Of a stretch of DNA of 64,000 nucleotides, positions 18,566 through 53,574 are shown piece after piece. The translations under genes were made by a program, and so were the position numbers. The notes below the pieces were generated by a model. The model searched no databases and was not told the origin of the DNA. It worked only from the letters and a program-made list of their open reading frames with translations. Each line of letters starts with the position of its first letter. Within the stretch, counting starts at the first letter, position 1. The stretch is from Blasia pusilla (Eukaryota): contig CM114271.1 in assembly GCA_050084515.1 (NCBI GenBank), forward strand, positions 20,212,001-20,276,000, written 5' to 3'.

Positions 18566-18613
18566 TTTCCCCTTCTACGACGTCTTTCGCATCATTTCTT
18601 TGGCCACCAGTGA

Positions 18614-18618
<5 letters not shown>

Positions 18619-18675
<57 letters not shown>

Positions 18676-22500: not shown

Positions 22501-24438
22501 TATAACTTTTGTAGAAGAGATAAGTTTATCGTGAGTAATGTCATAGAATATCAAATACTTTAAAATCATCAGATATCAGATTGCCAAAAAAAATTAGTTG
22601 GCTTCTACTCTTAACGTGGAATAACATCACATAGGCAAATCCTAGTGCAAAAATAGATCTAATTACCAAAAGACAACATCCACTTATAGTTGAACCTTGA
22701 ATTTTATGAGCAGTCATGGCATACCCAAGTAAAAGAGGAAAGGTTTTCTTAACATATTTGCGGTCCGAATCATACCTTAATGTTGCAGACTTTGTCCTAG
22801 ATATAGTAACAAACTTACCGCTTGAGAGAATCATAACCTGAATTTGTAGTATCTCATTATCTTTATACATAAGCTCAACAACTTTTGCTAAAGAGCCATT
22901 AGCATCCTATATTCTCAATTTGATGTTGGATGTTAGCATGACTATGCAATGAAGGGCTACAAAAGGCAACTGGTAAAATCTCTTGAAGTTAAAAATTGGA
23001 GACATTTGGTTGTACTTCCAATACCTAACCATGAATGAAATAAAATGTTTTCCCACACTCCGGTGGTTCTTTGAAGAGTAGTAGACCAGATTTGATATCT
23101 TTGAAGAGTCAAAAAAGTTCGGATTGTTCACTATTTAGATTAGCTATGTCATGTTCAATAGGATGTGTTATGTCTGAAGTAGACTCATGTGTCAGTGGAG
23201 ATGATTGTGCTGTCATAAGGTCTGCAATATTAACCTGTAGTTCATGTTGTAAAGATAATGTACTTTTGCAAGGATATCTGCTACATGGACTTGACTCCAT
23301 AGATTTTTGAATCCATGTGCTTTAACTAGTATATAAGCATCATCGATAGATTTAATTATCTGCCTGAGAATACATTCATGGATATAATTCCATTTGATTG
23401 CAGATGAGGTCAACATACTACTTTCAAAATGGAACTTAACATTGGAAAGAAGAACTACATAAAAAAACTCATTGGTTTGGTGAAGTGGATGAAATTCAGT
23501 AAACCTAAGTACACGGGTAGTTTTTGAGACTATATTACCTAAGTTGTCTAAGCCAATGTAAGGTGTAATCTACTTTGGATAAGTTTTCAAAAACTGATAA
23601 TTAGTCCAGTAGTGTGTGAAGGTCAAATCTTCAAAAGCTTGTGGTCTATTGGAATATAGGAAAATTGGATGAATACATAGAACTGAAGCATCTTTATAAA
23701 AGAAACTCCGTTGTTTCGTCTTTTAGGATAGATCGATGAGATCTAGTAGAGAGCCTTTGCGATTAGTGAAGGACAGGCTCCGGAGCTCGAGATCGACCTG
23801 TTGAGGCCCCGGGAACTTGAGACAACATGCTTCCCCTTTGTTTCGGCTCATTTGGAGCCATATTAAGAAACTTACTATTTTGGATAAGTGTTGTTTTGAA
23901 GATATGATCAAATTTCTATTTTGGGAAGTAGCCCTTGACCTCCTACATCAGGTCAAGAGCCAAGGAGGTGACTTGGGAGCATAGGTTACCATGGAGAGAG
24001 CTTGGGAGAGGGGAGGGATATACTTCAAGGAGAGAGAGCTTGAGAGCTAATTCTCTCTTTGTTGAACCTCTTCGCATAAGGCGGCGGAGCTATGGTCCTC
24101 CTTGTCTTGTGTGTGTGTAACCCAAGCCTCTCATTAGGAGAGTGGGTTTGGTTTGACATTGAGAGAGACATGTGAGAGCTATGGTGTTGTGAGCGAAATT
24201 TGACCTTATTTTACAAAGAGAGAATGAGAGCGTGAGAAAACTTCAATGGAGGAGCTTGCTAGTTACTTGCTGTTGGTGCAAGTGGGGGACCGCTTTCCCC
24301 ATTCAGTGGCTCATGGGAGTGCTTATCGGACAAGCGCTACTTGTTTTACTATTTTTCATTGCCGATTTTTTATGGGGAAGAGTGGCGTGCGGAAGCGCTG
24401 CCCAAATTTCTGTAGAGATGAATTTTGAGGGCAAATTT

Positions 24439-25058
24439 CCCCATTCCAGTGCTCTCGAGCCGCGTTCGACCGTTGTCGCGTTGGTTGCCATTGCCGCCAT
24501 TACGGAGTGGACGGTTTTCCACGACAATTTTTTATTGTCTCACTTGAGCCGCCACCTCGTACTTTGTTGTGGCTGCCGCCGTCAGCCTTCACCATTGACA
24601 GTGTGTCGTCAACGGTCTACTGTCGCCTTCCGCTGTCAATCGTCGATTGTCGCCACCGCCTAGCGTCGCTTAGAGCCGCGTTTGACTGTTGTCCCATTCC
24701 AGTGCTCTCTGGCCGCGTTCGACCGTTGTCCACCGTTGGTTGCCATTGCCGCCATTACGGAGTGGACGGTTTTCCACGACAATTTTTTATTGTCTCACTT
24801 GAGCCGCCACCTCGTACTTTGTTGTGGCTGCCGCCGTCAGCCTTCACCATTGACAGTGTGTCGTCAACGGTCTACTGTCGCCTTCCGCTGTCAATCGTCG
24901 ACTGTCGCCACCGCCTAGAGTCGCTTAGAGCCGCGTTTGACTGTTGTCCACCGTTGGTTGCCATTGCCACCATTACGGAGTGGACGGTCTTCCACGATAA
25001 TTGTTGATTGTCTCACTTGAGCCGCCATCTTGTACTTTGTTGTGGCTTCTTCCGTCAT
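24439..25058 (+). repeat. ~254-bp tandem repeat (2 near-identical copies plus a partial third) in the leader of the outer element
   Basis: Units start cccattccagtgctctc at 24439 and 24693; the partial third copy runs to about 25058. Confidence 0.92.
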
Positions 25059-25595
25059 CGCAATTTCGTCATGAACCCGTGATGGAAGGTGACCTCGGGT
25101 TGATGGTGTTTGAGTTTTCATTTCATTCTGCTAAGTTGTGATTGGTAGTCGCTCGACGATGATCGAGTACCGTGCCATAACACCCTTAGCCGCGTTGTGC
25201 CGCTTGTGGCCGCACCGCACCGTCTCGATCGCGGAGCCGCTCCTTCACTAAGATGTAGAGCGTATGTATTTCTACATACGCTCTACACCTTATTGATATG
25301 CCGCACAGTGCCGCATCCCATTATCGAGTGCCGTGCCGTTTTTGTAGCCGTTACGTGCCGCCAGTGCGGCACCATATCGCTAGATTTGAACCGCATAATG
25401 AGGAGATTTGAGCATCGTTAGTATCAAAGGGATACGACTGGCTAATTGGAGGATTTTGTCGTCATGGTCGAGTTGGGGTCGAGATTTGTAGTTGTTAAGG
25501 AGCGATCAATATTTTTTCAGGTTACCCATTCTGGTCTTTTGCCTGTACGTGGTGTCGTGCGCATAAACATCGCTACATAACATACATCGCTGTCA

Positions 25596-25783
<188 letters not shown>

Positions 25784-26661
25784 TCCCATGCTAACTTATG
25801 GCATCCAAATAACAAGACAAGAAGTACCAAAATATCTCCAATAAAATAAGATCCAATCTCTCTCACAACACCATAGTTCTCATATGTGTGCACTCTAACA
25901 TGTCTCTCTCAATGTCAAACCAAACCTACTCTCCTAATGAAAGGCTTGGGTTATACACACAAGACCATAGCTCCGCCGCCTCATGCCAAGAGGTTCAACA
26001 AAGAGAGAATGAGCTCTCAAGCTCTCTCTCCTTGAGGTATACCCCTCCCCTCTCCCAAACTCTCTCCATGGTAACCTATGCTCCCAAGTCACCTCCTTGG
26101 CTCTTGACCTGATGTAGGAGGTCAAGGGCCACTTACCAAAAAATAGAAAGTCGATCATATACTCAAAATGGTACTTACCTAAAATAGCAAGCTCCTCAAT
26201 ATGGCTCCAAATGAGCGGAAACGAAGGGGAAACCTGCTCTCTCAGGTTTCCCGGGGCCTCAGCAAGTCATCCTCAAGCTATTGAGCATGTCCTCCACTAC
26301 TCACGAAGGCGCTCTACTAGATCTCATGGATCTATCCTAAAAGACGTGACACTTATCGTGCGCATACACATCGCTACACAACATACATTGTTGTCACCTA
26401 ACACACACACAAACACGCACGATCACATGCTAACTCATGGTAAATAAACAATGAGACAAGAAGTACCAAAATATCTCCAATCGCCCTCCTAGTTGGTGGT
26501 TAGATCCCTCTAACTCCAGATTGCCATCTATCCCTACTTACCATGACATACATCTCTCGGACGCTAAGAGCAAGAAGGTCGGGTGTTCATGTGGCCCCAT
26601 CGTTAGTCGCCTTCTTGTCATCCATGTCATAGACACAAGTCGGAATGTAGAACTACCTACT

Positions 26662-27900
26662 CTATGTACATCTGGGACACATCCATCGTCCTTGAGGAAC
26701 CCTAGTGAGAGGTGGCGTCAAACATGCCATATGCCATCCTCTCAAACACCCATCATAGACTAGCATAGTGGTTGCACCATGGGCGGAACCACACAATACA
26801 CACCGCAAGCCTGCAAGAACTATTACGTAACTCGGATCAACTGTACAGTCAATACTTGGAAGATGATATGGCGCACAGTTGCGCATATGGTCCTTCCAAA
26901 CCATACCATCTTGTCCCTCCAATAAGAGAACACTGGATGGCAAAACCTCACACACTCTCAAGACGGTGCACCATGCAGTCACATCCAACGTCGTGGGTGC
27001 CGTCTACTGCAACTAGACATAATCTCCCTGATGAAACCTCCAGATAGTAGGTCGATAACCACCTCCCCGAATAGTCGCATACCTCAACGTATCCCGATGT
27101 TGCGCAATCGCCAAGTTCTCAAACGCCATGGGCATCACTCTCCAAAACAACTCAGCCCTCAAAGAACATGCTCGCATCCATATATTAGGGTCATCAAGGT
27201 TCAACACCTCACTAGTATCTTGACGAATGGCCGTTGGTAAATCTGGCTCTCGGCCATAAAGCAACAAGTACGGCGAGAAAGATGCTAAGGATGCCTGCCT
27301 GTTGAATCTGTATCCCATCGCCAACCACGGCAACTAAAGGTCCCAATCTCCTAGGTGACCTCTCTGCAAGCCATACTTGCGTAGTCCTCTCTTCATCGTC
27401 TGCACAACCGCTCCGCTTGTCCATCCGCCTCAGGATGATCTCGCGAAGTAGTGCGGTGGTCGATCAGTGCCTGATCATACAAGGCTTGAAACTCCCTGCG
27501 GAACTCTGTACCTTGGTCTATCAACACCTCAACTGGTACGCTGTAACGACTCAACACTCGATCTAGGAAGGCATAATCTACTCCCTCACTCGCTTTGTCA
27601 TGCAATGCAACCAACTCTATCCACTTCGAGAAGTACTCGACCATCACCAACACATAACAACTATGGCGCTCCATCAAAGGAAAAGATCCTGCAAAATCCA
27701 AACTTCATCTATAACCTAAACCCATGATTGGAAGTGGATGTAACTGTGGAGTTGGAGCATTGAATGATGCTCAGACTCGATCATATACCATGCATCTGGC
27801 AATAAACTCCTGAACATCAGTGTGCATGCCTCGCCACCAATATTGAATCTCGAGCAAGCTGTATGTCCACTTCACTCCAAAATGACCCAACTCCTCGTGG
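26662..27900 (-). pseudogene. Integrase (H2C2 zinc finger, DDE core) with C-terminal PHD finger
   Basis: HEELGHFGV...YWWRGM...C near 27900-27790; core 27720-27200; PHD CVLCGSAHGATTMLVYDGCLRGWHMACLTPPLTRVPQGRWMCPRC at ~26805-26665. Confidence 0.9.
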
Positions 27901-28279
27901 GATGACGCACCAAACGTGCTCTCTACGAAGGATGAGGCACTACACGCACTCTACCATTCTCTCACACTTGCAATATATGTGTGCCCTCCCATCGAAATTG
28001 TCTGGCTCGCTGTAGGATCCGATCTCGCTCTCTAGCACCCACTGTGCTCGTGACGCTGCAAGTACGCAGGTACTCCAAGACCAGTCCATCGTCGTGAATG
28101 TCTTGGCCACCTGTTGTCTCCTCACCGGCCTCTGGATCTAAGGACTCTCCATCAGACCTCGCCATCGAAGTCTTAGCAATCTGGCTCTCCGTAGCCAACA
28201 AACCCAAATAGGCTGACACATGCCATCCTGGCACCAACTCCTCATCACTCTCACCATGCCAACGAGCTCTAGTCGCAAC

Positions 28280-29700
28280 TCACTGAATCGAGCATGGGTT
28301 ACGGCTCAAACCATGTGCATCCTGGTTGAGCATCCCAGGTCTATGCACCACTTGGAAGTCATACTCCTGCAACAAAAGAGCCCACCTCGCAAGCTTCCCT
28401 GTAAGCTTGTTGGACTCCATCAACAACTTAAGTGGTTGATGATCAGTAATGATGGTAAAGGGATTGCCGAATATATAACATCTAAAATGTGCGACAGCCC
28501 ACAATGCAACCAAGCACTCACCCTCATACGAGCTATACTTCGCCTCTACAGCGTTGTTTGAGCGACTAGCATAAGCCATCACAAACTCTCTACCATCATC
28601 ATCATGCTGGGTGAGCACGGCTCCAAGCCCCAACATGCTCCAATCAGTATGCAACTAGAAAGGACGCCCCCTGAACGATCTCCTCAATATGGGCGCGAAA
28701 GTCAATCTATCCTTGAGCATCCAAAATGCTCTCTCTTGCTCATCCCCCCAGTGCCACTCTTGATCCACCTTGGTCATCAAGGTTAGCGGCTTAGTAATCG
28801 AACTAAAACCCTTGACGTACCGTCAATAGAAGTTTGCCAATCCCATAAATGCACAAACTCGACTCACATCTGTAGGGCGTGGAATGCGTGAAATAGCCTC
28901 TACCTTCGTCTATTGCACACCAAGGCCCCCAGGGTACATCGTGTGACCCAAGTACTCAATCTGGTCATAGAAGAACTTGCTCTTGCTTGAATGTAGCTTC
29001 AGCCCATGTAACTGCAATTGTCGAAACACCTCCTCTAGATGTCCCTCATGCTCCTCAACCGTGGCGGTAAAGACTATGATGTCATCAATATAATACCTAG
29101 CAAAATCCAGACATGCCAAGATTCTATCCATGACCCTCTAAAACTCAGTCGGGGCGTTCTTTAACCCGAATGGTAAGAACCGCCACTGGTACAAACAATC
29201 CTTCCCGTGAGGATCGATGCCCCAAAATGTTGTCTTTTGCCTGTCCTCCAATCTGATAGGCAACTAATGGTATCCGACTCACAAATCCAATGAATTGAAG
29301 ACCTTTAATTTGCATGCCCAATCGCATCAAAGATCTCCTTGGGGGTGGGCATGGCATACCTATCGGACTTTGTCTGCCGATTGATAGGTCGGTAATCTCC
29401 ACACATCCGCCTATCCAGTTGCCATGCATATCCTTCTTGGCGGGCATGATAGTGGCAGATGCATACTCTCCATGCGACATCTCCATTAGTCCTGCTCCAA
29501 CCAAGGCCTCCTACTTTGAATCAGAGCCCTCTCCATGTCATTGTACCTGTAGGGTCGTCGGAAGATCGGCGTGTCACTCGACAACTCAATGCGGATCCTT
29601 GGACCCTTCAACGTACCCAAATCATGCATACTAAATGCAAAACAGCTCCTATAACTCCTAAGGAACTAGTGTATCCGACGCTGCTCTCCTCCTGTCAACT
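28280..29700 (-). pseudogene. Ty3/gypsy reverse transcriptase and RNase H
   Basis: EYASATIMPAKKD, YQWRFLPFGLKNAP, YYIDDIIVF (~29075-29095), IEYLGH, RNase H ORF 28280-28654. Confidence 0.93.
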
Positions 29701-30029
29701 TAGGGCCCATATATGGCTCCCAAGTCTCCATCGTGACTACGGTAGGACTCTCCGGCGTTGGTGTCGGTGGTTGCTATGGTGCAACCCCGTCTCAGACAAT
29801 AGAACTCTTATCTCCGTGTGCAGTACCCGGAACCACACTCAATGTTGTGGCTATCATCTCCTGGCGTACCTACAAAATATCCCAAGAAGTCCAAGGGTGT
29901 CTCTCTTGATCATCCTTGGTGTGTCGATCTCCTGGGTCTTGCCCCCAACCGCTGCCTTAACCGCCTCAATAAGCATGGGGCTCACCAACGCAATAAGCTG
30001 TGATCTCTCGCGTCCTCAAACAAAGCTGC

Positions 30030-30995
30030 TCAGCTACTCCTAAGCTGAAAATCCATATCAAACAGTTCAGGTCTATTTCCTGACCCAAGACATGACGTCG
30101 TGATGCCTCTGATAGTGACGGTACTACCGTCACTCTTGTGGGGAATCCCATCGCTCGCTCTGACTCATCGGCGTTGGGCTCCACCAACCTCTGTACTTGG
30201 TCATCCCAAACCAAGCCAGGTTCGTCCTCCTTAAATGCATAGGAAGCGGGAAAACCCACCAATGTGGGAAAGGCTGCCCGTGGCCTGCCAATCCTGTTGA
30301 CCACAATCAACGGCGGTCGATCATCTAGCCTCACTGATTGTGATTGACGGCCCGGATCCAATATAGAATCCACCAAAAAATTGGAGGGGCGCTCCACTCT
30401 CGCATATGCCCTCCGTAACACCTCGTGTGGTACCAAGTTGGTCCACCAAATACGGAGGCGATGTGCTTGTGAACCCACACTCGCCGCATCTAACAACAGT
30501 GCCGGGCCGATCCATGCGCGCACTTGATGTGCACTCGTCACCACGCGGGACCTCGAATTGCCCAAAATTGGCACATTCTCCATAATAGATGTTGGAGAAC
30601 GAGACTAATGCTCTTGTAAATATCGCAAGATCCGCATCATCTCCCAAAATAACCTAGACGGAGTGTCAACTAACCCGCTATCTCGTCCAACACTCAATTG
30701 GCCCTGACACGGCCAACCAACAATGACCAAGTCTATGGTCCCTACCCGCTCCAAGTCCTCCATCCCCACCAATGAAATGTCCCTCGGTAGGGAACTCTGG
30801 TAACCCTGAATGGCGGACATAGACAACAAGTCGGGAAACGGAGGCGTAACAATGCCACATGGTGAAGTGAAGCGTGCCTTGCAACATCATCAATCTCCAT
30901 ATACAGGTACTGCTGCACGCGCACTCCAGCGTGCAAAATTACAGCTAACCCAGTACTGATCCCTCCAAAGAGATCCAACACCCGAATACCCTTCT
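30030..30995 (-). pseudogene. C5-cytosine DNA methyltransferase domain (DNMT3-like) embedded in pol
   Basis: Motif I RVLDLFGGIS (~30955-30985), II YMEID, IV DLVIVGWPCQG (GWPCQG 30701-30718), VI ENV (30572-30580), VIII AHRLRIWWTNL (~30446-30463), IX-X ESERAMGFP...RRHVLGQEID. One frameshift and one stop. Confidence 0.9.
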
Positions 30996-31429
30996 CTGGG
31001 ATGCACCACACAATCGGGGTGGTGTCCAAAGGGGTCATAGCAGCACTCCTGCATACTTGGGGTTCCTTTGACCCGTCACACTCTGGTGCAAATATCTCGC
31101 TCCACGCAGTTTGCACATGCTCAGTGGCTAAGCGTCGGAGCTCCTCAGTCGAGCCCCAAAGTGGCACCTCTCCTCCACGGACTAATGCGGCTACCATGAC
31201 ACTCCTCTGCATAAAAATGTCAGGAACGGGAGTATCCTCTGCATGGACATGTCCCTCAATAAAATCACTAGGCCAAGTGATGGCACCACTAAATGCTGCT
31301 AAGGTCGCCATCTCTCTTGGCCGTCGCTCGATCATTGCACCTCTGAATCGAATAGGTAATGAGCTAAGGCGCCCATTATCTGACTGCCATCCTGGTGTGT
31401 AGGACGCTGACTCCTCCCAGTAATCCAGG

Positions 31430-33688
31430 GAAAACCCCATCGGGTATAACACTGCTCCACCAACCAAGACATCGTAGGACTCTGCATCAGTCACTATCGC
31501 CTTGGCTTGCACCACATACTCATCTGTACGATGTCTCGGGCGAATCCTCACCACGACCTCCTATCGGGTGATATATTGTGTGGTACTCGCTCCATCCAAG
31601 GATGTCTGTATCCGGAATGGACAACGCTCCACATCGGCTCTCGTCAAGCCCAATCCTCTGAATGACGCTTTCCCCGACATCAGGGGTTGCGCTCTTGGAT
31701 CCAACAAGACGCGCTGCGGACTAAAAGCTCTACCTCCGGGACTCACCAACTGGAAGACCTCTCCTCGGTTATCCACCAACAAAACACCAGGAGAAGCCAT
31801 GGCACGCTCTATCGCGGGTCTAGCGGGCATCTCTACCATCCTAGCAGCCGCAGCCTGCTATGAATCTGACGTAGACGGCCCGAGCATCCGCTCCAAAGGC
31901 AGGTCCATCACCTCCTCTCCAATCACCTCTGAACGTGATGCAGGAACTCCAACTCCACGCTCACATAGTGTAGCGGCCAGCCAAAAAACCTCGGCGGGCG
32001 TACCTCCGAACGTCATAACATCGGAAGCACATAACGGTGACCATCCCCAACAACGTACTTGACACATGCCCCTCCTGAGCATCAGCAATAGGAGTCGTCG
32101 TACTTGCTTCTCCCATCGCCCTTCATGCCTGCACACCAACAACATCACCAACTCTCCAGGAACTCTGATCAGGACCCATTGATGGGGTCCTCATTGCTTC
32201 AGACAACGTGAAAGATTGAGGAAGCCTAGTATGTTTTCTGGCTTCCCCTTGATGTGGATCCAACTCCGCGGCTGCTCCACGCATCACAACTACGGTGGCC
32301 TCCATCTGGGAAACCTCGTACATCCAACCAGGATCCTCCATATCTCTGGCTGCTCCATATGATGTCGATGCCATAGATCGGGCATCGGGTAACCTCAATG
32401 CCATAGCGGCAATCTGCTCCTGTAGCTGTTGTATCGGAGCAACCATCGTAGTCTCACGTTTGGCGTCTCCCTCGACGCGTCTAGGTGGTGGGACTCTACC
32501 TCCTCCATAGGAAACTCCACCACCCTATCGGGCAACTCGAGCTCCTCGTCCCCCAACGAGACCACCTGGTGCACGATCTCTAGGCCCACCCAGACCGACT
32601 ACTCGCTCTGGTGCCCTCTCTGGCCCTCGGTCCGGACGTAACTCAAGATGTAAATTGAAACACCTAGCACGTGTATGACCATACCTTTGATAATAGTCAC
32701 ATTGATAACCTCCTGGTGCAGCACCATCTCCTCCTCCATGCTGAGGCACACGTCCATGACCCTGACGAGTGCAATCGCGCTGATGATGGGCTCCACCACA
32801 TGACCAACAAGTAATTGTAGACGGCTGCTGTTGAGCCGTATATGAAGGCGGAGGTCTCTGTGGCACGGCCTCCCGATATCCTCCTTGAGCTCGTGGTGCC
32901 ATAGTCGACCTATCTCGGAGTCCACGTTGCGGCATTGGTGGTGTAGACAATCGTGACTACTCTCACCCAGAACCCATGGTGGCTACGCTCTCCTCTGCCA
33001 TGTTGCGCTCAATATTCTCGGCGGTCCTAAAAACATCTCTCAACGTAGGGGAGGTTTTCATAAGAAGCACCCCCTCCCGCACCTGTGTCCGCAGGGTCTG
33101 GTCCAGCATCACGTGACATGACTGGATAGCCTGAGCCTCTGTCACTCCTTGAGTGACGTTGATCAACCGGCGCAAGCGAGTGTAAGCCTCACACAAACTC
33201 TCACCCGGGCGCCTCTGGAAGTCGTGGATGCTTCGCAACTTCTCTGTCCGTACCCCCTTGTAGATCGCCCTCGACTCAGCAAAGAACTCAACCACGGGGT
33301 TGAACCTGGGACGAACCCGACTAGATGGTGCAACTGTTCCAGTGCGAGTGACCCCTCCTAAAACATCACTAGTGGAAGAGGAAGTAGGCTCTCCTGACTC
33401 CTCCTCATCTGGGAACGGCTCCGTCCATGACACATAATTGGGGTCATAGTAGAGTCGCCATGCCTCAATCTCCTGGGCATATGTGTGGGAGAACTCATGG
33501 AAATCGTCCATGGGCGCCCCTTCTAAATGTTGGAACATACCGTTCCATGCTCTAAACGGGTTGAACTCTCTAGAGCTCCTAGCCCACTGTGAGTCATACC
33601 AACTTCTAAATTCTTCAATGAAGTCGTGTAGCTCTATGGTGCCTATAGCACCTGAAAACCTACGCGGTCCTCTACCTTGATCGTCCAT
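31430..33688 (-). pseudogene. gag (two zinc-knuckle-like motifs) and aspartic protease of the inner element
   Basis: Gag-like FQRRPGESLCEAYTRLRRL; CWSCGGAHHQRDC and CDYYQRYGHTRARC; protease-like RVLLDPRAQP (degenerate LLDSGA) and YDVLVG flap. Confidence 0.8.
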
Positions 33689-36600
33689 CTCGTACGCTCA
33701 ACTGGTAGGACCACTCAATGTGTATGGTGGATCACTAACACACTCCCCCTCGTCTGAAGAAGACACAGAAGGAGATCGAGGTGGTCTCTCACGTGGAGAC
33801 CCTCAAAACCTGGCACCATTCCGGGTAAACCCTCCAAAGCTACTCTCAAGTCCACAACCTCGCCTCTCAAAATCCCGAAAGGACACCGTGATGGCCCTCG
33901 TGCCCCTCTCACATGATCATTCTCAATCTTGTAAGTAATTCCTCAATCACTCAAACTAAACATGCGGCACTCAATCTACACTTTCTCACTAAGATGTGTG
34001 CTCTACGGCAACAAGCAACGTGGTGCGGCAAATCAATCAATCTATCGTCTCATCGACAAACCATCCTCAACTCTGGACATCCCACACAGGTCTATGTCCC
34101 CTAAACCCATACATCATCGATACTTCTAGCATCAGCACGAAATCCAATATCCCAAATAACTTCCCAATATCCGGAAATCCCTCACACGTGCAGGGTAAGA
34201 GACCAGAATGGGTAACCTCACAATAATGTCGATGGCGCTCCTAGGCAACTAAAATTCTCGATCCCAGCTCGGTCGTGAAGACAACTCCTCCAATTAACAA
34301 GTCATAATCCTCTCGTACTGACATTGTTCAAACCTCCTTGATGTGTGGTGCAGGTCCAGCGGTCTGGTGCAGCACTAGCGGCACGTAACAGCTACAAACG
34401 GCACGGCACTTGGCGGCATATCCTCCTCAATCAGCAATTCACACGCTCTGCACCTTAGTGAAGGAGTGGCTCTACGATCAAGATGGTGCTGTGCGGCCAC
34501 AAGCGGCACGGCGCGGCAATTGGCGGCATGTTGCGGCTACGGGCGTCACAACACAGTACTCGATCATCGTCGAGCGGCTACCAATCCCAACATAGCAACA
34601 TGAAATGAAAACTCAAACACCATAACCCGAGGTTACCTGCCATCATTGGTTGATGATGAAGCTGCAATGATGGTGGCGTCTTAACCAAACTACGTGGTGG
34701 CGATGCAAGTCAGAGAATCAATGGTGGTCGTGGAAGACCCTCCACTCCATAATGGCGGCAATGGCAACCCAAAGGATGGACAACGGCCGAACGCGGCTCT
34801 GAGCAGCGCTAGGCAATGGCAACGGCCGACGGTGGACGGTGGACGGTGGATTGTGATAGTTGACCATTGATGGCAAACTGTTGACAATGACTATCACGGC
34901 GACGGCCTCCAACGGCACGGCGGCTGGTTTAGGGTTTGAACAATTTAACCCAAAAAAATTGCGTAGGAATGGTAGTTTTGCAAGATTGACCATAATTTTT
35001 TGCTCGCAACTCCAAATTGCACATCGTTTGTTGCACAGCCTGTACAGCTTCAAAATCTACGACAATATTAAAAAATAATTGGGAATCAAATATTCCAATA
35101 AAAACTGATGGGGACTGTTGTAATGCCCATTCTCCTACATAAAATTTGATAGCGCTTCCGCGCTGATTTCTCCCAACAGAAATGTAAAACATGTGAGAAC
35201 ACAAATCAGCAAGCTACATGGTGCTCCCAAGAGCATCCATATGGGGCAACCCGCCCCCATACTCAATCCCTATAAAAAAATTGGTCAGCACTTCCACGCG
35301 CCACTCTTCCACACAAAAAATCGGCAAAGGAAACATCACAAGTAAGCGGCTCTTGCTCCAGTGAGCACTCCCATGAACCGCTGAACGGGGAATATGATCC
35401 CCAACCTGAAAAACCAACTAGTGACCAGCAAGCTCCCCCATGAAGCTCTCTTACTCACTCATTCTCTCTTTGTAAAATAAGATCCAATCTCTCTCACAAC
35501 ACCATAGTTCTCACATGTGTGCACTCTCACACGTCTCTCTCAATGTCAAACCAAACCCACTCTCTTAATGAGAGGCTTGGGTTACACACAAAAGGCAAGC
35601 AAGACCATAGCTCCGCCACCTCATGCCAAGAGGTTCAACAAAGAGAGAATGAGCTCTCAAGCTCTCTCTCCTTGAGGTATACCCCTCCCCTCTCCCAAGT
35701 TCTCTCAGGTTTCCCGGGGCCTCAACAGGTCATCCTCGAGCTACTGAGCATGTTCTTCACTTCTCAAAAAGGCATTCTACTAGATCTCATAGATATATCC
35801 TAAGAGATGTGATAGTGATACAGAGTTTTGCGAGGAGTTTTAGGTCTTATGTGATCAGGTGCTGATCGACCACCGCACCATTTTGCGAGATCATCCTAAG
35901 ACGGATGGACTAGCAGAGAGGGTTGTGCAGATGTTGAAGAGAGGATTGTGCAAGTATGGCTTGCAGAGAGGTCATCTAGGAGATTGGGACCTATAGTTGC
36001 CGTGGTTAGCGATGAGATACAAATTCAGTAGGCATGCATCTTTAACGTCTTTCTCACCATACTTGCTACTTTATGGCCGAGAGCCAGATTTACCTATGGC
36101 CATTCTTCGAGATGTTGGTGAGGTGTTGAACTTTGATGACCCCGATGTATGGATGTGAGCATGTGGGCATGTTCTTAGATGGCTGAGTTGTTTTGGAGAT
36201 TGATGCCCATGGCATTTGAGAACTTGACCATTGCGCAACATCGGGATACATTGAGGGATGCGACTATTCGGGGAGGTGGTTATCGATCTACTATCAGGAG
36301 GTTTCATCAGGGAGTCTATGTCTACTTACAGCAGACGGTACCCAAGATGTTGGATGTGACTGCAAGACGCACTATCTTGAGAGTGCTTGGGATTTTGCCA
36401 TCTGGTGTTCTCTTATTGGAGGGACGCGATGGTATGGTTTGGAAGGACCATGTGCGTATCTGTGCACCATGTCACCTTCCAAAAATTGACGATAGTTGAT
36501 CCGAGCTAAGTAATAGTTCTTGCAGGCTTACAGTGTATGTTGTGTGGTTCCGCCCGTGGTATAGCCATTATGCTAGTCTATGATGGGTGTTCGAGAGGAT

Positions 36601-39600
36601 GGCATATGGCATGTTTGACGTCACCTTTCACTAGGGTTCCTTAGGGATGATGGGTGTGTCCTAGATGTACATAGAGTAGGTAGTTCTAGATTCCGACTTG
36701 TGTTTGTGATATGGATGACAAGAAGGCGACTAACAATTGGGTCACTACAGAGTAGCTCGAGCTATTCCTGAGCGCCGGTAAAAGCTGATGGATCTTCTTC
36801 CTTTAGGGCATGGAACTTTTGATGAGCCGCGCGCTCACAGGTGTCGATGTCCCATTAGTGGGCCCTTCACGGCTCGCTTAGGAAGGAAGAAAGGAAGGAA
36901 GGGTGCCCGCAAGCAAGCGAGCGCTATGGGAGGGAGGGAGGAGGGAGGGAGGACACCCGGCCTTTTTCTCTTAGCGTCCGAAAGATGTATGTCATGGTAG
37001 GTAGGGATAGATGACTATCCACAGTTAGAGGCACCTAACCAACAACTAGGGGAGCGATTGGAGATATTTTGGTACTTCTCACCTCTGTGTTTGGGTGCCA
37101 TGAGTTAGCATGGGATTGTGCGTATTTGTGTATGTGTTTGGTGACAACGATGTATGTTGTGTAGTGATGTATTTGCGTACGATAAATGTCACGTCTTTTA
37201 GGATAGATCGGTGAGATTTAGTAGAGCTTCTTTGCGAGTAGTGGAGGACAGGCTCATGAGGTCAAGGAGGACCTGTTGAGGCCTTGGGAAACCTGAGAGA
37301 GCAGGTTTCCCCTTCGTTTCCGCTCATTTGGAGCCATATTAAGGAACTTCCTATTTCGGATAAGTACCGTTTTGAGTATATGATCAATTTTATATTTTGG
37401 GAATTAGCCCTTGACCTCCTACATCAGGTCAAGAGCCAAGGAGGTGACTTGGGAGCATAGGTTACCATGGAGAGAGTTTGGGAGAGGGGAGGGGTATACC
37501 TCAAGGAAAGAGAGTTTGAGAGCTCATTCTCTCTTTGTTGAACCTCTTCGCATGAGGCGGCGGAGCTATGGTCCTCTTTGTCTTATGTGTGTAACCCAAG
37601 CCTCTCATTAGGAGAGTGGGTTTGGTTTGACATTGAGAGAGACATGTGAGAGTGCACACATGTGAGAACTATGGTGTTGTGAGAGAGATTTGACCTTATT
37701 TTATTGGAGATATTTTGGTACTTTCGCCTTTGTGTTTGGGTGTCATGAGTTAGCATGGAATTGTGCGTATTTGTGTGTGTGTTCGATGACAATGATGTGT
37801 ATGCGCACGACACCTTCTATGGTGAGGATAAGAGTCAATGTATGTGATAGATTGAGACCTATAGATTATGGGTATCTGCATGGATGTTAATAGAGCTTCT
37901 GTGGAAGACATAGACCTGTTGAGGACCATTCTAGAAATCAACTTTAGTCTTATCTCATCTACTCTCCAGAGACCTAGGCATCTGGCAGATTTTGTATCAA
38001 TATCCAAGGAACCGGTGGGTTCAGATTGAAGGGGATACTTTAGGAAAAAAACTCCAATTAGTATTGACGTTGTATGTTCATAACAACTCTCTAGAGAAGT
38101 AATATAAGTGGATGATATGCAATCACATTTCGATGATGAGGAGATAGCCTATAGTAATTACATTTCATTGTTAAAGGATCAATGAAAGGAACTAGTTCAA
38201 GGTTAATAGGTGATGGAAAGCCAAGACAACAATATGGTTTTGTTTGGCTTTTACGTACAACATAAATACCATCTTTGCACTTATGTAATTGTTTTCTCAA
38301 TTCATATTTTAGCAAAGTATCAAATGTCTTCTTTTGAGAGTGCGATAAATTGGGTAGTAACATACCAATAGTCTCTGTGGGTATGTATGTACATATCTCA
38401 GATGTTACTTCGTTTACATCTGAAGGCTCCAACCATGAAATCATGTGATAAGAAAGACTACCCCTACCCTGTAACTCATAACGTAGGAAGTAATTAATCA
38501 CTTTCCCAAGTAAGCGTGGCCCATTGAAAATAAACTGGCTCAGAAAAGAATGTAACCTGGTGTGAAATAATTGTGCACACTCAGCAGAGGCATCTCGCCA
38601 TGTGAAAATCGGTTTAAAGTTTTTCAACAAGGTTTCCATATTTGTGAACTCAGGCCATCGCGTTTCTAAGATTTCATCAGAGGTCAAAGTGAGGAAAAAA
38701 TGTGGCATGCCCCATTTGTGGACCATGGCTTTCAAGTCCTTCAAATGCCTTCTATGCCAAGTTGGGCTACCTGATAATTGGGGACTTATAGAGTATTTAG
38801 AGAGATGAACATACAAATCTCCTTCATGAACATCTGGTTTTTGTTTTCCAAGGTTTTCCAATTCTCTGTTTAGTATGAATGTCCTACTATTTGAACATAG
38901 AGAAATAGATTGACGAAGGTGGTGCATTAATAAGGCACATGGCTTATACAAGGAGAATGGATGGAATAATTTTTTAGAATGATTGCGCAAATACTTGGAA
39001 CACGTAGGGTGACCAATGAAATAACCCCAAAGGTAAGGAAGAAAAAATGGAAAGAGTCTTGTATCTATAGTAAGAAGTAGGTCTAGAGAATTTCCTGTGT
39101 TATCACTAAGTAAACTTTCATGTACGCATGCATATGCACACAACGTTATACTATCATTTTCAAAGATGTCAGTAGATGCACGCCTCCTAACAAGTAGCGT
39201 ATAGGCTACATCGTGTTCATAATATTTAGTTCAGGTTGGTAAGGATCATAACTCATACTAAAGGTTACTTGACCTTTTGCTTGAGACTGTTTTATTATGC
39301 TATTGATTGTTGTAGAAGGAAGTATAACAAGGCCACTGGAAGGATTAGGTAACTCTACTAAGGCTTTGTAGTCTTTGTGCAAGCTATTTATTTGAAGATT
39401 CATTACAAAGATATCCTTCAAATTTGCTGAAAGTGATCTTCCACTTGGAGATAGAGGATCGCTATTATTAAAGACGATAAGAGGAGAGTCTAGGAGAGAT
39501 GTCATATTGAAAAAACCTTAATGAAACCCATTGAACTTCTTCTCAATGCCTATCCTGGAGTCTACTATAGATAAAAGTTGCAGCTCAAGGGGATCAACAC

Positions 39601-41793: not shown

Positions 41794-45204
<3,411 letters not shown>

Positions 45205-47751: not shown

Positions 47752-50700
47752 TTAACCAAGGATCTCAAAATCTGAGAAAGGAGAACCTGGGTCCTTCCAT
47801 TCTCCCCACTCTTCATCAGAAGCACTACACTTCTCAGGTATTGGCACAGTTAGATCACCAGGAGGATACGGGCGAGGCTCTTTCAAAAGATACTCATCCT
47901 TTAGACTCTCTTCAGGAGTTGGCCTTTGCATGGGATCATATGTAAGAAGCTTTTGTAGAAACTGCAAGGAGTTTTCTGTTAAGTTCAGGAGATAGTTCCT
48001 GAGAGTCAGAGGAGACCGATCGTCCACAAAACAAATCTTGTTGTAATCAGGTAGGAGTGACACACCTGGCCAATCACTCTCACTTGGTGAACCCAATATT
48101 CTTACCAGACGGCTTAGTTGATCTATATCATTAATACCAGGAAAAAGTGGTTTCCCCCACAACAGTTCACCAAATATACAACCAACCGACCACACATCTA
48201 TCTCGGTTCCATATTTTGTGGCTCCATAGAGCAGCTCAGGTGCCTTATACCATCTTGTCCCTACCATAGTAGTAAAATCAGATCCATCCTCTGTTCCATC
48301 GTCACACCGGTCACTGAAGTCCTGTGAAAATCCACCGTTTCTGTTATAAGCCCCACCTTCTGAACCATCTTCCCATTCTTCCTGATTTGCAGAACCGACC
48401 CTTCTAGAATCACCAGTTCCTTTTCCACCTGAAGTATCTGCTTTTCTTGCTTCCATGTATGAATATCGAAACTGTGGGGCACCAAACCACCGAGTACCTT
48501 CAGCATCAGATAGTGAGGTGTCATGTTCCTCCATCTGTTCCCAAGAAGTGCCAACATCTCTATCAGCTGAAAGATTTCCAAGGTTCCCATCCAATCTTTC
48601 CTGCCGCATCTCCCTTACACAGCTGGCTTGCCCTTCACATCTTTTGTCCATTTTGTCAGTTTCAAACTTACTTGTTCTATTCTGTGGGAAGCTGGGGCGT
48701 TCTTCATCATCTGCAGGTGAACAAGTAGTATTGTGAGTTCCCCAGCCTTTGCCGACATCCCACAGGAAGTTATTGAACTTTTCTTTCTTGTTGCTCTTTC
48801 CTGAACCATCTTTCAATTCTCTCTTTGACTTCTCTTTTGATACAAAAATCTGATTTCCATGACTGATCTCCGAAGAAGAATCAATCTTTTCAACAAGACT
48901 ATTTGCATGCTGGTAGGCATCATTACCGGATAATTCCTTAATTGCCGAAAATTCATGACCACTGGCATTAGCCATTTCCCTCAGTGGCCCATTCAGCACC
49001 ACTCTATTTCCTGCCTTTCCTCCAATTCCTGATTCCTGCACAACTTTCTCCAGTTTCACATCCCTGTGCGTACCCTGGGCTTTGTCCTCAGCACTAAAAT
49101 CCTTGTCCACTTTGACAACACCACCACTCTGTGAACTCAGTATTCCCTGTTTCCCCAATCTACCATCTGGGAGACCTGCCACAGCCGATAAGCCATTCAT
49201 GTTCTCAGAAGTTTCCCTCTCAGCAGAGCAAGAGCCCTGATAGAGAGGGCTCCAAGATCCTCCTTCACATATTCCATGTGTTGCAGCCGATTCTTCAGGT
49301 AAGACCCTTGTATGTGAGGGTGAATGAAACAAAAAGTCCCTTGACGTTTCCTTGCAGATGTTCCTTCCATCCATTTGAATCTTGTCTGCAATACCAACAG
49401 GATTGTCATGAAGCACCATTTTTTCTTCCGCACTCAGTCGGTTTGTTCGCTTCCTCAAGAATCGCTGCAACTTGCGAAGAATATCATGTTCTCCCTTACC
49501 AGAAGGGACTTCCGTACTGTAGATCTCCATGTTGTCCTTGGTGACAATCCAGTCATTTTGAATTCCGTATTGCTTCTTCCAATTACCTTCACTCTCACCA
49601 GAGCTGGAATCATTTCCTTGCTCCGTCAGACAAACCTTGTCACTTCCATCAGAGACCTTTTGAACTGCACTTTCAACTCCACCTAGTACTGATAGTGACA
49701 TTTTCATGCTTCCACGGCCCTCCGCATTTTCCAAACAAAACCACCCACAGCAGCTAGGATCTTGACCCTCCCATCCCTTAGTCTGATTTCTGCCAACACC
49801 TGGTACTCCCAATCCATCTAATCCTGTTCCATTCCTTACCATTTCTTCCACCCCGACAGAGCTTGTAAACTCATCAGCAGTACCTGCTATTGGGCATTGA
49901 TCAGAAATATTTAGTGGAACAGAATATTTATCACTGCCTTGTTGCTTCTCAAAGTTCCTCTGCCCACATTCACGTCTGCCAAAATTTGTGTACTGCGACA
50001 GATGCTCCGGTTCATTGAAGATTAATACAGCTCCTTCACCACGAGTACCATGATTTTCCATTCGGTAAAGGCCACCAGAAGCTGCTGAAATCTCATCTTT
50101 CAGCTGCACATCCTCCGCATCGCTGCATGCAACCCCACCTATTTTGGGTTCGGATAACGGAATACTACCTCGACAAATTGGTAATATTCTTGGACTGCAA
50201 ATCTCTGTTACGTTGTGGACTTGACTTGCTGCCACATCCTCATCTGCTACCTCTGATTCATAGACATCTTCTTCATTCACATTGAGATCTTTCCTCAGCA
50301 CTCGTGCCTGCCCGAAATCTGCAATCTTGAGAGTACCATCCTTGGCAATCAAAAGATTGGTTGGCTTTATATCTCTGTGGACAATAGCCGCAGCATGACA
50401 TGCAGCTAGCCCCTGCAATATCTGAACTGTCCAACCTTTAACTTCCCCTTCTGAGAGTTCTCCTTTGCTAGCTCGTACTACTTCATATAAATTAGAGGGC
50501 AGGTATTCCAAGACCAGCACCATATTACTCCCTTGCACAAAGTACTCATACAGTTTCACAACATTGGGGTGATCCAGGAGCAACAGAGCCTTCACTTCTC
50601 GATATGAACTATCTGAGTCGTGAATTTCCTTCAAGGCTACGATGGTGTTATCTTCCCGTCTTCTTGCCCTGTAAACTTCCCCAAACGTTCCTTCTCCGAT

Positions 50701-50787
50701 CCTTTCAAGAATCTCATATCGTGACACAATCTCTTTGTTTCCATGTAAGCTCCAGGTGTCAGCGAAGGGCCAATCTTCAAAAGCCAT
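47752..50787 (-). CDS. CDKF;1: Cyclin-dependent kinase F;1 (plant CDK-activating kinase), 1011 aa, single coding exon
   Basis: WSLHGNKEIVSRYEILERIGEGTFGEVY, VALKEIHD..SSYRE, HRDIKPTNLL, DFGQAR, long insert, FTTMVGTRWYKAPELLYG, GINDIDQL, WPGVSLLPDY. The insert between subdomains VII and VIII is typical of CDKF. First ATG is at 50787; the track starts at an upstream TTG. Confidence 0.92.
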   Translation of the reverse strand: MAFEDWPFADTWSLHGNKEIVSRYEILERIGEGTFGEVYRARRREDNTIVALKEIHDSDSSYREVKALLLLDHPNVVKLYEYFVQGSNMVLVLEYLPSNLYEVVRASKGELSEGEVKGWTVQILQGLAACHAAAIVHRDIKPTNLLIAKDGTLKIADFGQARVLRKDLNVNEEDVYESEVADEDVAASQVHNVTEICSPRILPICRGSIPLSEPKIGGVACSDAEDVQLKDEISAASGGLYRMENHGTRGEGAVLIFNEPEHLSQYTNFGRRECGQRNFEKQQGSDKYSVPLNISDQCPIAGTADEFTSSVGVEEMVRNGTGLDGLGVPGVGRNQTKGWEGQDPSCCGWFCLENAEGRGSMKMSLSVLGGVESAVQKVSDGSDKVCLTEQGNDSSSGESEGNWKKQYGIQNDWIVTKDNMEIYSTEVPSGKGEHDILRKLQRFLRKRTNRLSAEEKMVLHDNPVGIADKIQMDGRNICKETSRDFLFHSPSHTRVLPEESAATHGICEGGSWSPLYQGSCSAERETSENMNGLSAVAGLPDGRLGKQGILSSQSGGVVKVDKDFSAEDKAQGTHRDVKLEKVVQESGIGGKAGNRVVLNGPLREMANASGHEFSAIKELSGNDAYQHANSLVEKIDSSSEISHGNQIFVSKEKSKRELKDGSGKSNKKEKFNNFLWDVGKGWGTHNTTCSPADDEERPSFPQNRTSKFETDKMDKRCEGQASCVREMRQERLDGNLGNLSADRDVGTSWEQMEEHDTSLSDAEGTRWFGAPQFRYSYMEARKADTSGGKGTGDSRRVGSANQEEWEDGSEGGAYNRNGGFSQDFSDRCDDGTEDGSDFTTMVGTRWYKAPELLYGATKYGTEIDVWSVGCIFGELLWGKPLFPGINDIDQLSRLVRILGSPSESDWPGVSLLPDYNKICFVDDRSPLTLRNYLLNLTENSLQFLQKLLTYDPMQRPTPEESLKDEYLLKEPRPYPPGDLTVPIPEKCSASDEEWGEWKDPGSPFSDFEILG

Positions 50788-53574
50788 TTCTAACTCCAAT
50801 GACTAACTCGCCCACGAATCAACTTTTACGCAGAGCATGACTTGGATGAAGGGTGCGCGTGCTATTGACGCAAGCTGAAAAACAAAGAAGGGAAAGCTTC
50901 AGATTCTGATAAGTATACTACAAAACGTCATTGGGTATGGCATTTGACGACTCTATACCTGAGTAGTCTTCTACACGCAGACCATAAAATAGCTTTCTCA
51001 TTCAATAAGAAGCCATCCCCTCTTCATACAATATTTACTAGACAGCTGTTGGAAATTGACTGGCATTCGTGTCGCACGACTGAACAGCAAGGCTACCCAT
51101 CACGAAATGCTATGAATCCAGCATAAATTGGGGTTCCATCCGACGTTTCTGATCAATGCGGGCTCAAAGGCTGGCAATCCACGGAATCTCATCATTTGGC
51201 AGCCTGATGTAGAGGATACGACGTTCGCGACGGAATTAAGACGGAATACACTCAAGATCTTTCGCATTTTCTACGTCCAACGTCCCTCAGGATGCTGACC
51301 TGACACAGAATCAAAGAGAGTACCTTGATGCTCCACATCCACATGTTTCTCTCTCGCCTAGATGAAATGAGATTTCGAATTCGACCCGTTATCGCTGAAC
51401 ATCCGTTACATCGAATCAAATTACTCGATGCTTCGAAATCGGGCTCCACAGATCATTACATGCGCGAGGAGAAGTCCATGACTACATCCCCTTTCTTACG
51501 CCCAAAATATTCCCGCATAAGTAAAGGACACTCACTTCTCAATAACAGAAAGAAAAGAATCCCACAGAACCATACCTGTCTTCACATTATCATCGAACCA
51601 CATAGCGTGGAAACGCTGAGAGTCATCTGATCGCCGCATGCTCGCTCTTACGCGCGGTATTCTTCACCAAAAACCTAAACGACACAGAAAGCGAAGCCAC
51701 AAAATCAGAATTTCCTGCTCCTGAGGAGCCAATCACGAGTCACCCGATCGCTGACCTCACTGGCACAAAAGATCCGGCCCACATATGCGTAGTCAAGCTC
51801 TCATCACCCGACCTAAAAAAAGCAAAGGACTCCTTCACCGCTTCAGACGATGCAGAGGAGTCAAGAGGCGCAATCATCAGTCTAGTCCGTTTAACAAAAC
51901 CAATCTCCCCTGCGCATTGAGAACATCGGATCACAATTCCCAGGCTCTGTTTGACGACTTACGAATTGCGGAAGCGGCCGGATCCGATCAGATCGCATGC
52001 AAGAAAATTGCAAACCTCTTTCGTGTCGAATATTTCACCCCCTCTCACATGAGCGAACTGACCCACGAAAGAAAACGCGAGACGAGAGGAGGAGGGGGAG
52101 AAGAGGGTGCTCCTTTTATGGGTTTTTTTTATATTATTATTATTATTATTTAGTATTGTTTTTAAATGTCTTTTTTCCTCTTTTTGAGAGTTTCCATTAA
52201 AAAAAAATTTTCTTTAAATACATGCTCTTTTTAAGAAGATGTTTTCACTCAAGGTTAAATGTGCTTTGTATTAGTAGAAGATAATTATGGAAAAAAATAG
52301 AAGTGCATCAAAACACTAGTGCAAACAAAACACCAAAAAGATTTTGTTGTAGCCCCATTATCTATACCATAAGGAGGGTTAATGTAAGTATGAAGATTAA
52401 AGGAAATTGTTTGCGGAGAGCTAATATAAGAAGTGAAGCACATGAAAAAACTGAAAGAAGCATGATCTTCACTATTCGATTGGAGCTGAGCTTGGCCATC
52501 CAGGTTAATTTTAGTAGGGAAGGGGGGAAAAGTATGTATGATGTAAGTCTGACGGTCATCATACGTTCCATTCCTGTGGCCAAAGTGGAACCTCTAAAAA
52601 GCGGGGGACATTTGCCCCACTAGTAGTGGAGGTTCCCCACCTTGAGCCCACCTTCCATACAAATGTACCCTCTAACTCTAGTCTTTGGCTTTTATCCACA
52701 AAAGGTGACTATGCCGTCAGCTAAGGTAACTTTTGGCAAGTAGTAATTGACGGTAAATACATACATGAAACCCATAGGATTTACTCTTCTTGGAGAACTC
52801 GAAGTGGATTACTGAAATTATTGAATTTCTTGGAGGAGTTGGAGGTGTGAAATTGAGGTTGTTGCTAAAACCACGTTTAAATTGTTGGGTAAATAAGGTG
52901 TGAAAAGTTGTTTTCATCCAAGTACTTTCCAATTACTATCATGTAAGATTCGATACATACACACAATTGTGTTGTTACTACTAATTGTTACTTGTTGCTT
53001 TTGGCTCCGGGATCAAAGTGTGAAAATCATGTGACTATGCATACAATATATGTTGTGCAAAAGTCACTTCCAATGCAAGTACGCCATTCTCTTTTGGAAA
53101 GTTGCCAAGTTTCCACACTCACTTTGTAGACCAACGGCCAATTACAAAAGAAAATCCGGAAGATATTAAGTAGGAAATATCAAATTCCTTCGGCAGACCA
53201 TTACCTTTGCTCAATCCACTAAGAAAAATTGAAGGCAATCCTAGCTGTTGCTACTAGCTTAGCTTTGCAATATCGGCATATGCTCTCTATGTGTGTGGTG
53301 TGAATGTTGGCAGGAGACCACAGGCAGAGTGGGCTAGAGTCATATCTAGGGCTAGGAGGACACTCCGTTCTGTACATGCACATCGGACAACAAGATGAAT
53401 GGACATCTTTGTCACTCTTAGGTTTGTGGTGGCTCCTGCAACCATGAATAACAACTTACTTTCAAGTCTCAGAGAGTTTTGAAATCGCTCAAAAATAGTA
53501 GGAAACGACAATGCTATCAAATCTTTGAACATTCAGCATAAACTAAGTAAGGAGCTCTAGACAAGAGTATGAGG

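Follow-up and report, generated by a model that had tools for sequence, protein, structure and literature searches.

In two nested copies of a Ty3/gypsy retrotransposon of the liverwort Blasia pusilla, the 16 nucleotides (nt) that directly follow the 5′ repeat are complementary to a stretch within that same repeat, and we judge it moderately probable that they form a self-priming primer-binding site of the Tf1 type. Both copies lie in a 64,000-nt stretch of the genome (GenBank assembly GCA_050084515.1, contig CM114271.1, positions 20,212,001 to 20,276,000 of the forward strand), here called the window, and all positions below are counted from its first letter. The element encodes gag, a C5 DNA methyltransferase, reverse transcriptase, RNase H, integrase and a PHD finger. 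Its inner copy, on the minus strand, occupies positions 25552-35814 and interrupts an outer copy on the plus strand; in both copies the order of parts is A-coding-B-A-B, where A is the repeat that an earlier note on this DNA had called X and B is a repeat of about 110-130 nt found on both sides of the 3′ A copy. Two earlier papers (PMC4600332, PMC5006619) define self-priming as the looping back of RNA of the 5′ long terminal repeat (LTR) onto the sequence that immediately follows the LTR.

In both elements the 5′ A is followed without a gap by the same 16-mer, ACAAAGAGAGAATGAG. Its reverse complement, CTCATTCTCTCTTTGT, lies inside the 5′ A of the inner element (16/16), while the outer counterpart, CTAATTCTCTCTTTGT, matches at 15/16, with a C to A change at position 3. 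Direct reading and a mismatch search agree on these counts and on every coordinate (Table 1), as the earlier note had given them. The partner 16-mer is also present at 16/16 in both 3′ A copies, which makes it exact in three of the four copies of A, with 1 of 64 positions changed overall, and in a four-copy comparison it sits in the best-conserved block of A. All four A copies end in ...CTTATTTT, followed by ACAAAG... after the 5′ copies and by ATTGGAG... after the 3′ copies; because the A shared by both continuations is ambiguous, the repeat boundary is exact only to within 1 nt. As had been proposed, the candidate primer site puts the U5 end at the end of A, and complementarity begins at the first base after the repeat. 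The edge of the duplex thus coincides exactly with the last base of A, the point at which the 5′ and 3′ copies part, and this is the position required of a minus-strand primer.

The surroundings of the two halves are also those described before. A TATA-like motif, TATAC, lies 28 nt before the partner in the inner element and is found in all four copies of A, and CTCATTCT, which we take to fit the initiator consensus, has its A 31 nt from the T of the TATA motif. A tRNA primer-binding site starting with TGG is lacking: the first TGG after A lies about 33-35 nt downstream in both elements, and with no TGG for about 33 nt a tRNA 3′ end cannot pair next to U5. In the window as a whole there are no tRNA genes and no Rfam families at the gathering score.

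Since the motif is GA/CT-rich, we tested composition directly by shuffling, the earlier note having asked that chance pairing be excluded. The test was anchored, in that we measured the longest perfect complement inside the repeat from the first base after the repeat, and the null was a set of 20,000 dinucleotide-preserving shuffles of each repeat. The observed complement is 16 nt in the inner element and 13 nt, followed by one mismatch, in the outer element; the longest in the shuffles was 12 nt, and none of the 20,000 reached the observed length for either element. Over about 1.3 kb of each leader, only the start of the primer site has a complement of at least 9 nt, shorter lengths being its nested suffixes. 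A search of the window allowing up to 2 mismatches returned seven sites where 0.06 were expected: six are the element sites, and the seventh, at 53768, carries 2 mismatches and is unrelated. Site and partner form the longest inverted repeat of the inner 5′ region (16 nt, 100%), and in the outer 5′ region they are one of three, with a 24-nt local hairpin and a 20-nt pair at 90%.

The two elements share the site in full (16/16), although identity is 81% across the first 416-430 nt of surrounding repeat and leader and about 77% further along the leaders. By our own arithmetic, the absence of any change in 16 nt where the surroundings differ at about 19% has a chance probability of about 0.03. In minimum free energy folds of the stretch from the partner to just past the site, the entire R-U5 region of either element is closed by a helix, of 16 bp in the inner and 13 bp in the outer, where the centroid structure adds 2 bp beyond the mismatch. 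The fold z-scores are −3.2 (inner) and −2.8 (outer), a weak check since we chose the ends of the folded stretch. An alignment of the four A copies holds 314 gap-free columns, in which seven two-state sites group by element, two by position (5′ versus 3′) and none the third way. All four informative sites downstream of the proposed transcription start (columns 367, 392, 511 and 514) group by element, which is expected if the R-U5 of both copies comes from one template per cycle. No further copies of the family were found by self-BLAST of the window.

From the letters of the two elements we infer a start site, a cleavage and a priming step in the following order. Transcription would start in A, either at CTCATTCTCTCTTTGT or a few bases away from it, some 28-31 nt downstream of TATAC. 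Folding back across about 164 nt in the inner element, or 150 nt in the outer, the CU-rich RNA 5′ end would then anneal to ACAAAGAGAGAATGAG immediately beyond A. Cleavage by RNase H behind this duplex would free a 3′ OH, from which minus-strand DNA synthesis could be primed back through the last ~164 nt of A. Plus-strand synthesis would copy the primer and so rewrite the site in each cycle, and the two halves would on this proposal match perfectly at the birth of every new copy because of that rewriting.

The layout of the two elements was obtained from self-BLAST of the window together with direct reading. Identity from A to A is 87-94% by self-BLAST. The two elements share their first base in A, where the sequence reads TGTCACG in the 3′ copies and TGTTTCG or TATCACA in the mutated 5′ copies, and their last base in the second B copy (B2), which ends in ...GCGCACGACAC; these common start and end bases indicate that these ends are real, with a TGTC/GACA inverted repeat. 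No unambiguous target-site duplication was found, the inner flanks sharing only CAC/GTAC-type microhomology and the outer flanks nothing.

Table 1. Positions in the window of the candidate priming sites and of the parts of the two nested elements
Feature	Position	Strand	Remarks
Candidate self-priming primer-binding site, inner, ACAAAGAGAGAATGAG	35458..35473	-	starts directly after A
Candidate self-primer and start of R, inner 5′ A, CTCATTCTCTCTTTGT	35638..35653	-	16/16 complement of site
TATA-like TATAC	35677..35681	-	28 nt upstream of 16-mer, all four A copies
Candidate self-priming site, outer, ACAAAGAGAGAATGAG	24213..24228	+	16-mer identical to that of inner element
Partner in outer 5′ A, CTAATTCTCTCTTTGT	24047..24062	+	15/16
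Outer 5′ A	23712..24212	+	
Outer leader	to 25551	+	
Outer Y	35819-37056	+	
Outer B1	37057..37186	+	purine run AGGGGAG (37048-37054) upstream
Outer 3′ A (A2)	37187..37702	+	holds 16-mer at 37523-37538
Outer B2	37703..37813	+	ends ...GCGCACGACAC
Inner 5′ A	35474..35814	-	without ~177 nt present in other copies
Inner order after 5′ A		-	leader, coding region, Y, then B1
Decayed coding region, inner	26665..33697	-	
Gag-like open reading frame	32966-33697	-	
Zinc-knuckle open reading frame	32528-32956	-	
DNA_methylase (C5)	30608-30886	-	partial Pfam match, general model
RVT_1	28913-29137	-	
RNase H	28283-28654	-	
rve integrase	27396-27704	-	
PHD	26665-27003	-	
Inner B1	26352..26481	-	purine run AGGAGGG (26490-26484) 2 nt upstream
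Inner 3′ A (A2)	25843..26351	-	holds 16-mer at 25998-26013
Inner B2	25552..25842	-	ends ...GCGCACGACAC; expanded (GT)n at 25597-25781

Identifying the coding content allowed us to place the element. Along its own strand the inner copy matches Pfam families in the order DNA_methylase (PF00145), RVT_1 (PF00078), RT_RNaseH (PF17917), rve (PF00665) and PHD (PF00628). The PHD finger occupies the C-terminal position of the integrase, in the window and in relatives, and no chromodomain was matched; the tyrosine recombinase family (PF00589) gave no match in 42 minus-strand open reading frame (ORF) translations of the inner element, several of them scanned twice. The RNase H ORF is 75-81% identical to liverwort proteins (Riccia, Calypogeia, Marchantia) and about 56-60% identical to proteins of Closterium. 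Several of these relatives carry both PF00145 and PF00628, and intact ones show, in this order, a zinc knuckle, DNA_methylase, RVT_1, RNase H, Integrase_H2C2, rve and PHD. The element therefore belongs, by its domain content, to the Gypsy-DNMT3 kind and not to the Tf1/sushi chromoviruses, so the Tf1/sushi setting in which the earlier note had seen the site does not hold.

The boundaries that reverse transcription would set are less simple than the site itself. That note had read the layout as a split LTR, and the layout is real and the same as the A-coding-B-A-B order published for KnitGypsy-Dnmt3; taking X as the whole LTR, on the other hand, leaves unexplained both the extra B after the 3′ X and the lack of a polypurine tract before it. 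Indeed, no purine run of at least 7 nt stands directly before A2, which speaks against A being the whole LTR, and the only purine run at a repeat boundary lies 2 nt before the first B copy (B1), as AGGGGAG in the outer and AGGAGGG in the inner element. Bounded by the primer site that follows A and by the purine run that precedes B1, the LTR of reverse transcription would be B+A. Integrated copies instead begin with A and finish with B (TGTC...GACA), so that the boundaries set by reverse transcription would differ from the ends used in integration.

Several points weigh against reading the 16-mer as a self-priming site within an LTR cycle. The RNA may have its 5′ end elsewhere than at the partner. 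In Tf1 the complement is 11 nt long, and the 16 nt found here are longer. Covariation is not seen: RNAalifold on the four R-U5 copies gives no compensatory change at any of 49 pairs, and the sole difference between the two 5′ ends, the C to A change in the outer partner, is uncompensated. In the same analysis, GA-rich stretches elsewhere in A also emerge as pairing partners open to the CU-rich 5′ end, and the sample consists of two 5′ ends and four A copies, all decayed. The boundary purine run is short (7 nt). A plain LTR cycle predicts A or B+A at both ends, the latter giving B-A...B-A, whereas the copies seen read A...B-A-B; B2 is not accounted for by a simple LTR cycle. Finally, both elements show the same contrast between a B2 ending in CGACAC and a B1 ending in CGATAAG or CGATAAA (37179-37190, 26359-26347, 37806-37813, 25559-25552), and by eye both B1 copies have GGTGAC where both B2 copies have GATGAC. 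Such position-specific differences are unexpected if each cycle recopies B2 from B1, which should erase them. Over A and B together 12 sites group by element, four by position in the automatic alignment (with two more by eye) and none or one the third way, counts to be read knowing that the automatic B alignment is unreliable after about column 63 owing to the (GT)n expansion. These patterns hint that a cycle does not make the two copies of each repeat fully alike.

A use of the pairing other than priming is possible, if rather unlikely. The 16 bp would then be a functional long-range RNA or DNA structure, acting in packaging, dimerisation, translation control, strand transfer or circularisation, and the first strand would begin at some other place, such as the RNA 3′ end in DIRS-type models. 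The A-coding-B-A-B order is the layout of split-direct-repeat elements, and the primer of DIRS-1 reverse transcription is stated to be not known in the passage concerned of Malicki et al. 2020 (PMC7192593). The B1/B2 differences common to both elements hint, moreover, at collinear copying of B2 and so at priming at or beyond B2, and as the complement of the RNA 5′ end is the plus-sense 16-mer, the pairing could act between DNA strands. What favours a primer over such a structure is the position of the duplex, whose end at the last base of A is typical of a primer site and not of just any stem, together with the outcome of a scan (seed 10) in which neither the end of B nor the start of A had a second complementarity nearby that could prime there. 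Past the proposed start, the variable sites group by element, as they would after an LTR-type jump, and the element encodes an integrase, with the tyrosine recombinase absent from the translations scanned.

Two further explanations need no priming by the element's own RNA. The complementarity could be a non-functional relic, an inverted duplication of a GA/CT-rich stretch that arose once in the ancestor, for instance by template switching, and was inherited by both elements. Both halves are of low complexity, the two 5′ ends belong to elements of one family and no covariation accompanies them, and yet we consider a relic improbable: shuffles that keep the GA-rich composition never reach even 13 nt, the placement is exact at the repeat boundary, the site has no change in its 16 positions amid surroundings that differ at about 19%, and the partner has one in 64 across the four A copies. 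Less probable still is a primer from the host, either an internal tRNA fragment, as in the half-tRNA-primed copia lineages, or another small RNA sharing the sequence, whose 3′ end would read ...CUCUUUGU. Half-tRNA priming does exist in plant Ty1/copia lineages, according to the part of the survey that treats them (PMC6317226), and a window empty of tRNA genes and Rfam matches offers no host tRNA for comparison. Against a host donor, the site has no initial TGG, which excludes a tRNA 3′ end, and the element's own repeat already supplies the 16-mer, so that an external donor is unnecessary.

The joint between A2 and B2 (...CTTATTTT/ATTGGAG...) brings the base before the primer site against the base after the purine run plus CG. 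Formally, the integrated form is a two-LTR circle opened at the B/A site inside one LTR. As a reading and not a finding, and one that we regard as doubtful, we suggest that integration in this lineage uses a circular or end-joined intermediate, which would be cut within the LTR at a site resembling a circle junction. The differences between B1 and B2 that are common to both elements count against this as well. If it were true, it would form a mechanistic bridge between integrase-type and DIRS-type retroelements, and the self-primer would be the first identified primer in a split-repeat element.

Both elements carry further changes. The inner 5′ A has its ~177-nt gap at 35696-35701, which removes part of the presumed U3, the other three copies having this stretch; two direct repeats resembling GAGAGAGC flank the gap, which suggests a deletion by slippage or microhomology. 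In the inner B2 a short GT run has grown into a (CA)92 microsatellite (25597-25781, 100% matches). The outer leader contains a 255-bp tandem duplication at 24440-24949 (2.0 copies, 97% matches), with a third, partial and more diverged copy reaching 25057. The two other pairings of the outer 5′ region join 23763-23782, in the upstream part of A, to 25232-25251, 1.45 kb away (90% over 20 nt), and form a hairpin with 24-nt arms at 25245-25296 that adjoins the same leader stretch; no counterpart was detected in the inner element at seed 10. Only the outer element has, at 36880-36953 and thus some 100-170 nt before B1, two purine tracts of 24 and 26 nt, built from AGGAAGG and GGGAGGGA repeats.

The outer element also lacks everything from the leader to the middle of the integrase gene, about 6.7 kb in the inner copy, and may be a microhomology deletion derivative since GTAC occurs on both sides of the joint (leader CCTGTAC/GTG, integrase GGTAC/AGAG). 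The inner element is inserted within a few bases of that deletion joint (25544-25555, 35814-35830). We retain a simple nested insertion of the inner element into the outer, with its fall on the deletion joint as an unexplained coincidence. Just past the outer 3′ end, at 38091-39230 on the minus strand, lies a 379-amino acid (aa) ORF with a Helitron_like_N domain (E 5e-17), and an uninterrupted host-type ORF of 1016 aa at 47752-50802 (minus strand) begins with a CDK-like protein kinase domain; its best matches are liverwort proteins, at 43% over the full length in Calypogeia and 64-66% over the kinase part in Marchantia and Riccia. A simple-sequence array of about 217 bp occupies 41796-42012, and a 62-nt stretch at its edge is 95% identical, in inverted orientation, to 18608-18669.

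Set beside known systems, the candidate site resembles those of Tf1 of S. pombe, Tj1, the Tf1/sushi group and the plant Tcn1/TAR lineages, in which the sequence just past the 5′ repeat can pair with a stretch of that repeat lying beyond a TATA-like motif, no tRNA-type TGG site is present, and RNase H and integrase are encoded. Apart from the longer complement, the differences are a DNA methyltransferase, a PHD finger where chromoviruses carry a chromodomain, and the A...B-A-B repeats in place of two identical LTRs. A canonical tRNA-primed LTR element differs in its ends, which here are A alone at 5′ and B-A-B at 3′, as well as in the purine run before the 3′ repeat and the unambiguous target-site duplication that our elements lack. 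The DIRS-order split-repeat elements (Ngaro, PAT-like) share the A1...B1-A2-B2 arrangement, with the junction of the termini held internally as B1/A2, as described in a passage of PMC7192593. Unlike them, the present element has an rve integrase with an H2C2 zinc domain and TGTC...GACA ends of the integrase type.

In gene content and repeat order the element resembles KnitGypsy-Dnmt3 of Klebsormidium nitens, for which de Mendoza et al. 2018 (PMC5890265) give A-coding-B-A-B repeats in the legend of Fig. 4c and a C5 DNA methyltransferase inside a gypsy-type Pol. The host there is a charophyte and here a liverwort, and the putative priming site is an addition to the published description, in whose main text the terms 'primer binding', 'PBS', 'self-prim' and 'polypurine' are all absent. 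A 2026 preprint (10.64898/2026.05.21.726589) mentions 'streptophytes (Gypsy-DNMT3)'. In the literature we found no earlier statement of the priming mode of the Gypsy-DNMT3 lineage and no replication model for gypsy elements with DIRS-like A-B-A-B repeats, though such elements have been reported.

The plant survey of Neumann et al. (PMC6317226) predicts, in the passage concerned, self-priming for 12% of LTR elements, in the Tcn1 and TAR lineages, and its main text makes no mention of Marchantia, liverworts or Klebsormidium. With self-priming already predicted in some plant lineages, the site would not by itself be surprising; it would be a further case of a known priming class, set in an unusual architecture. 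Its value lies in its location, as a precisely placed self-primer would fix the U5 end of a split-repeat gypsy element, and the question of how split-repeat retroelements rebuild their ends becomes testable on a plant element.

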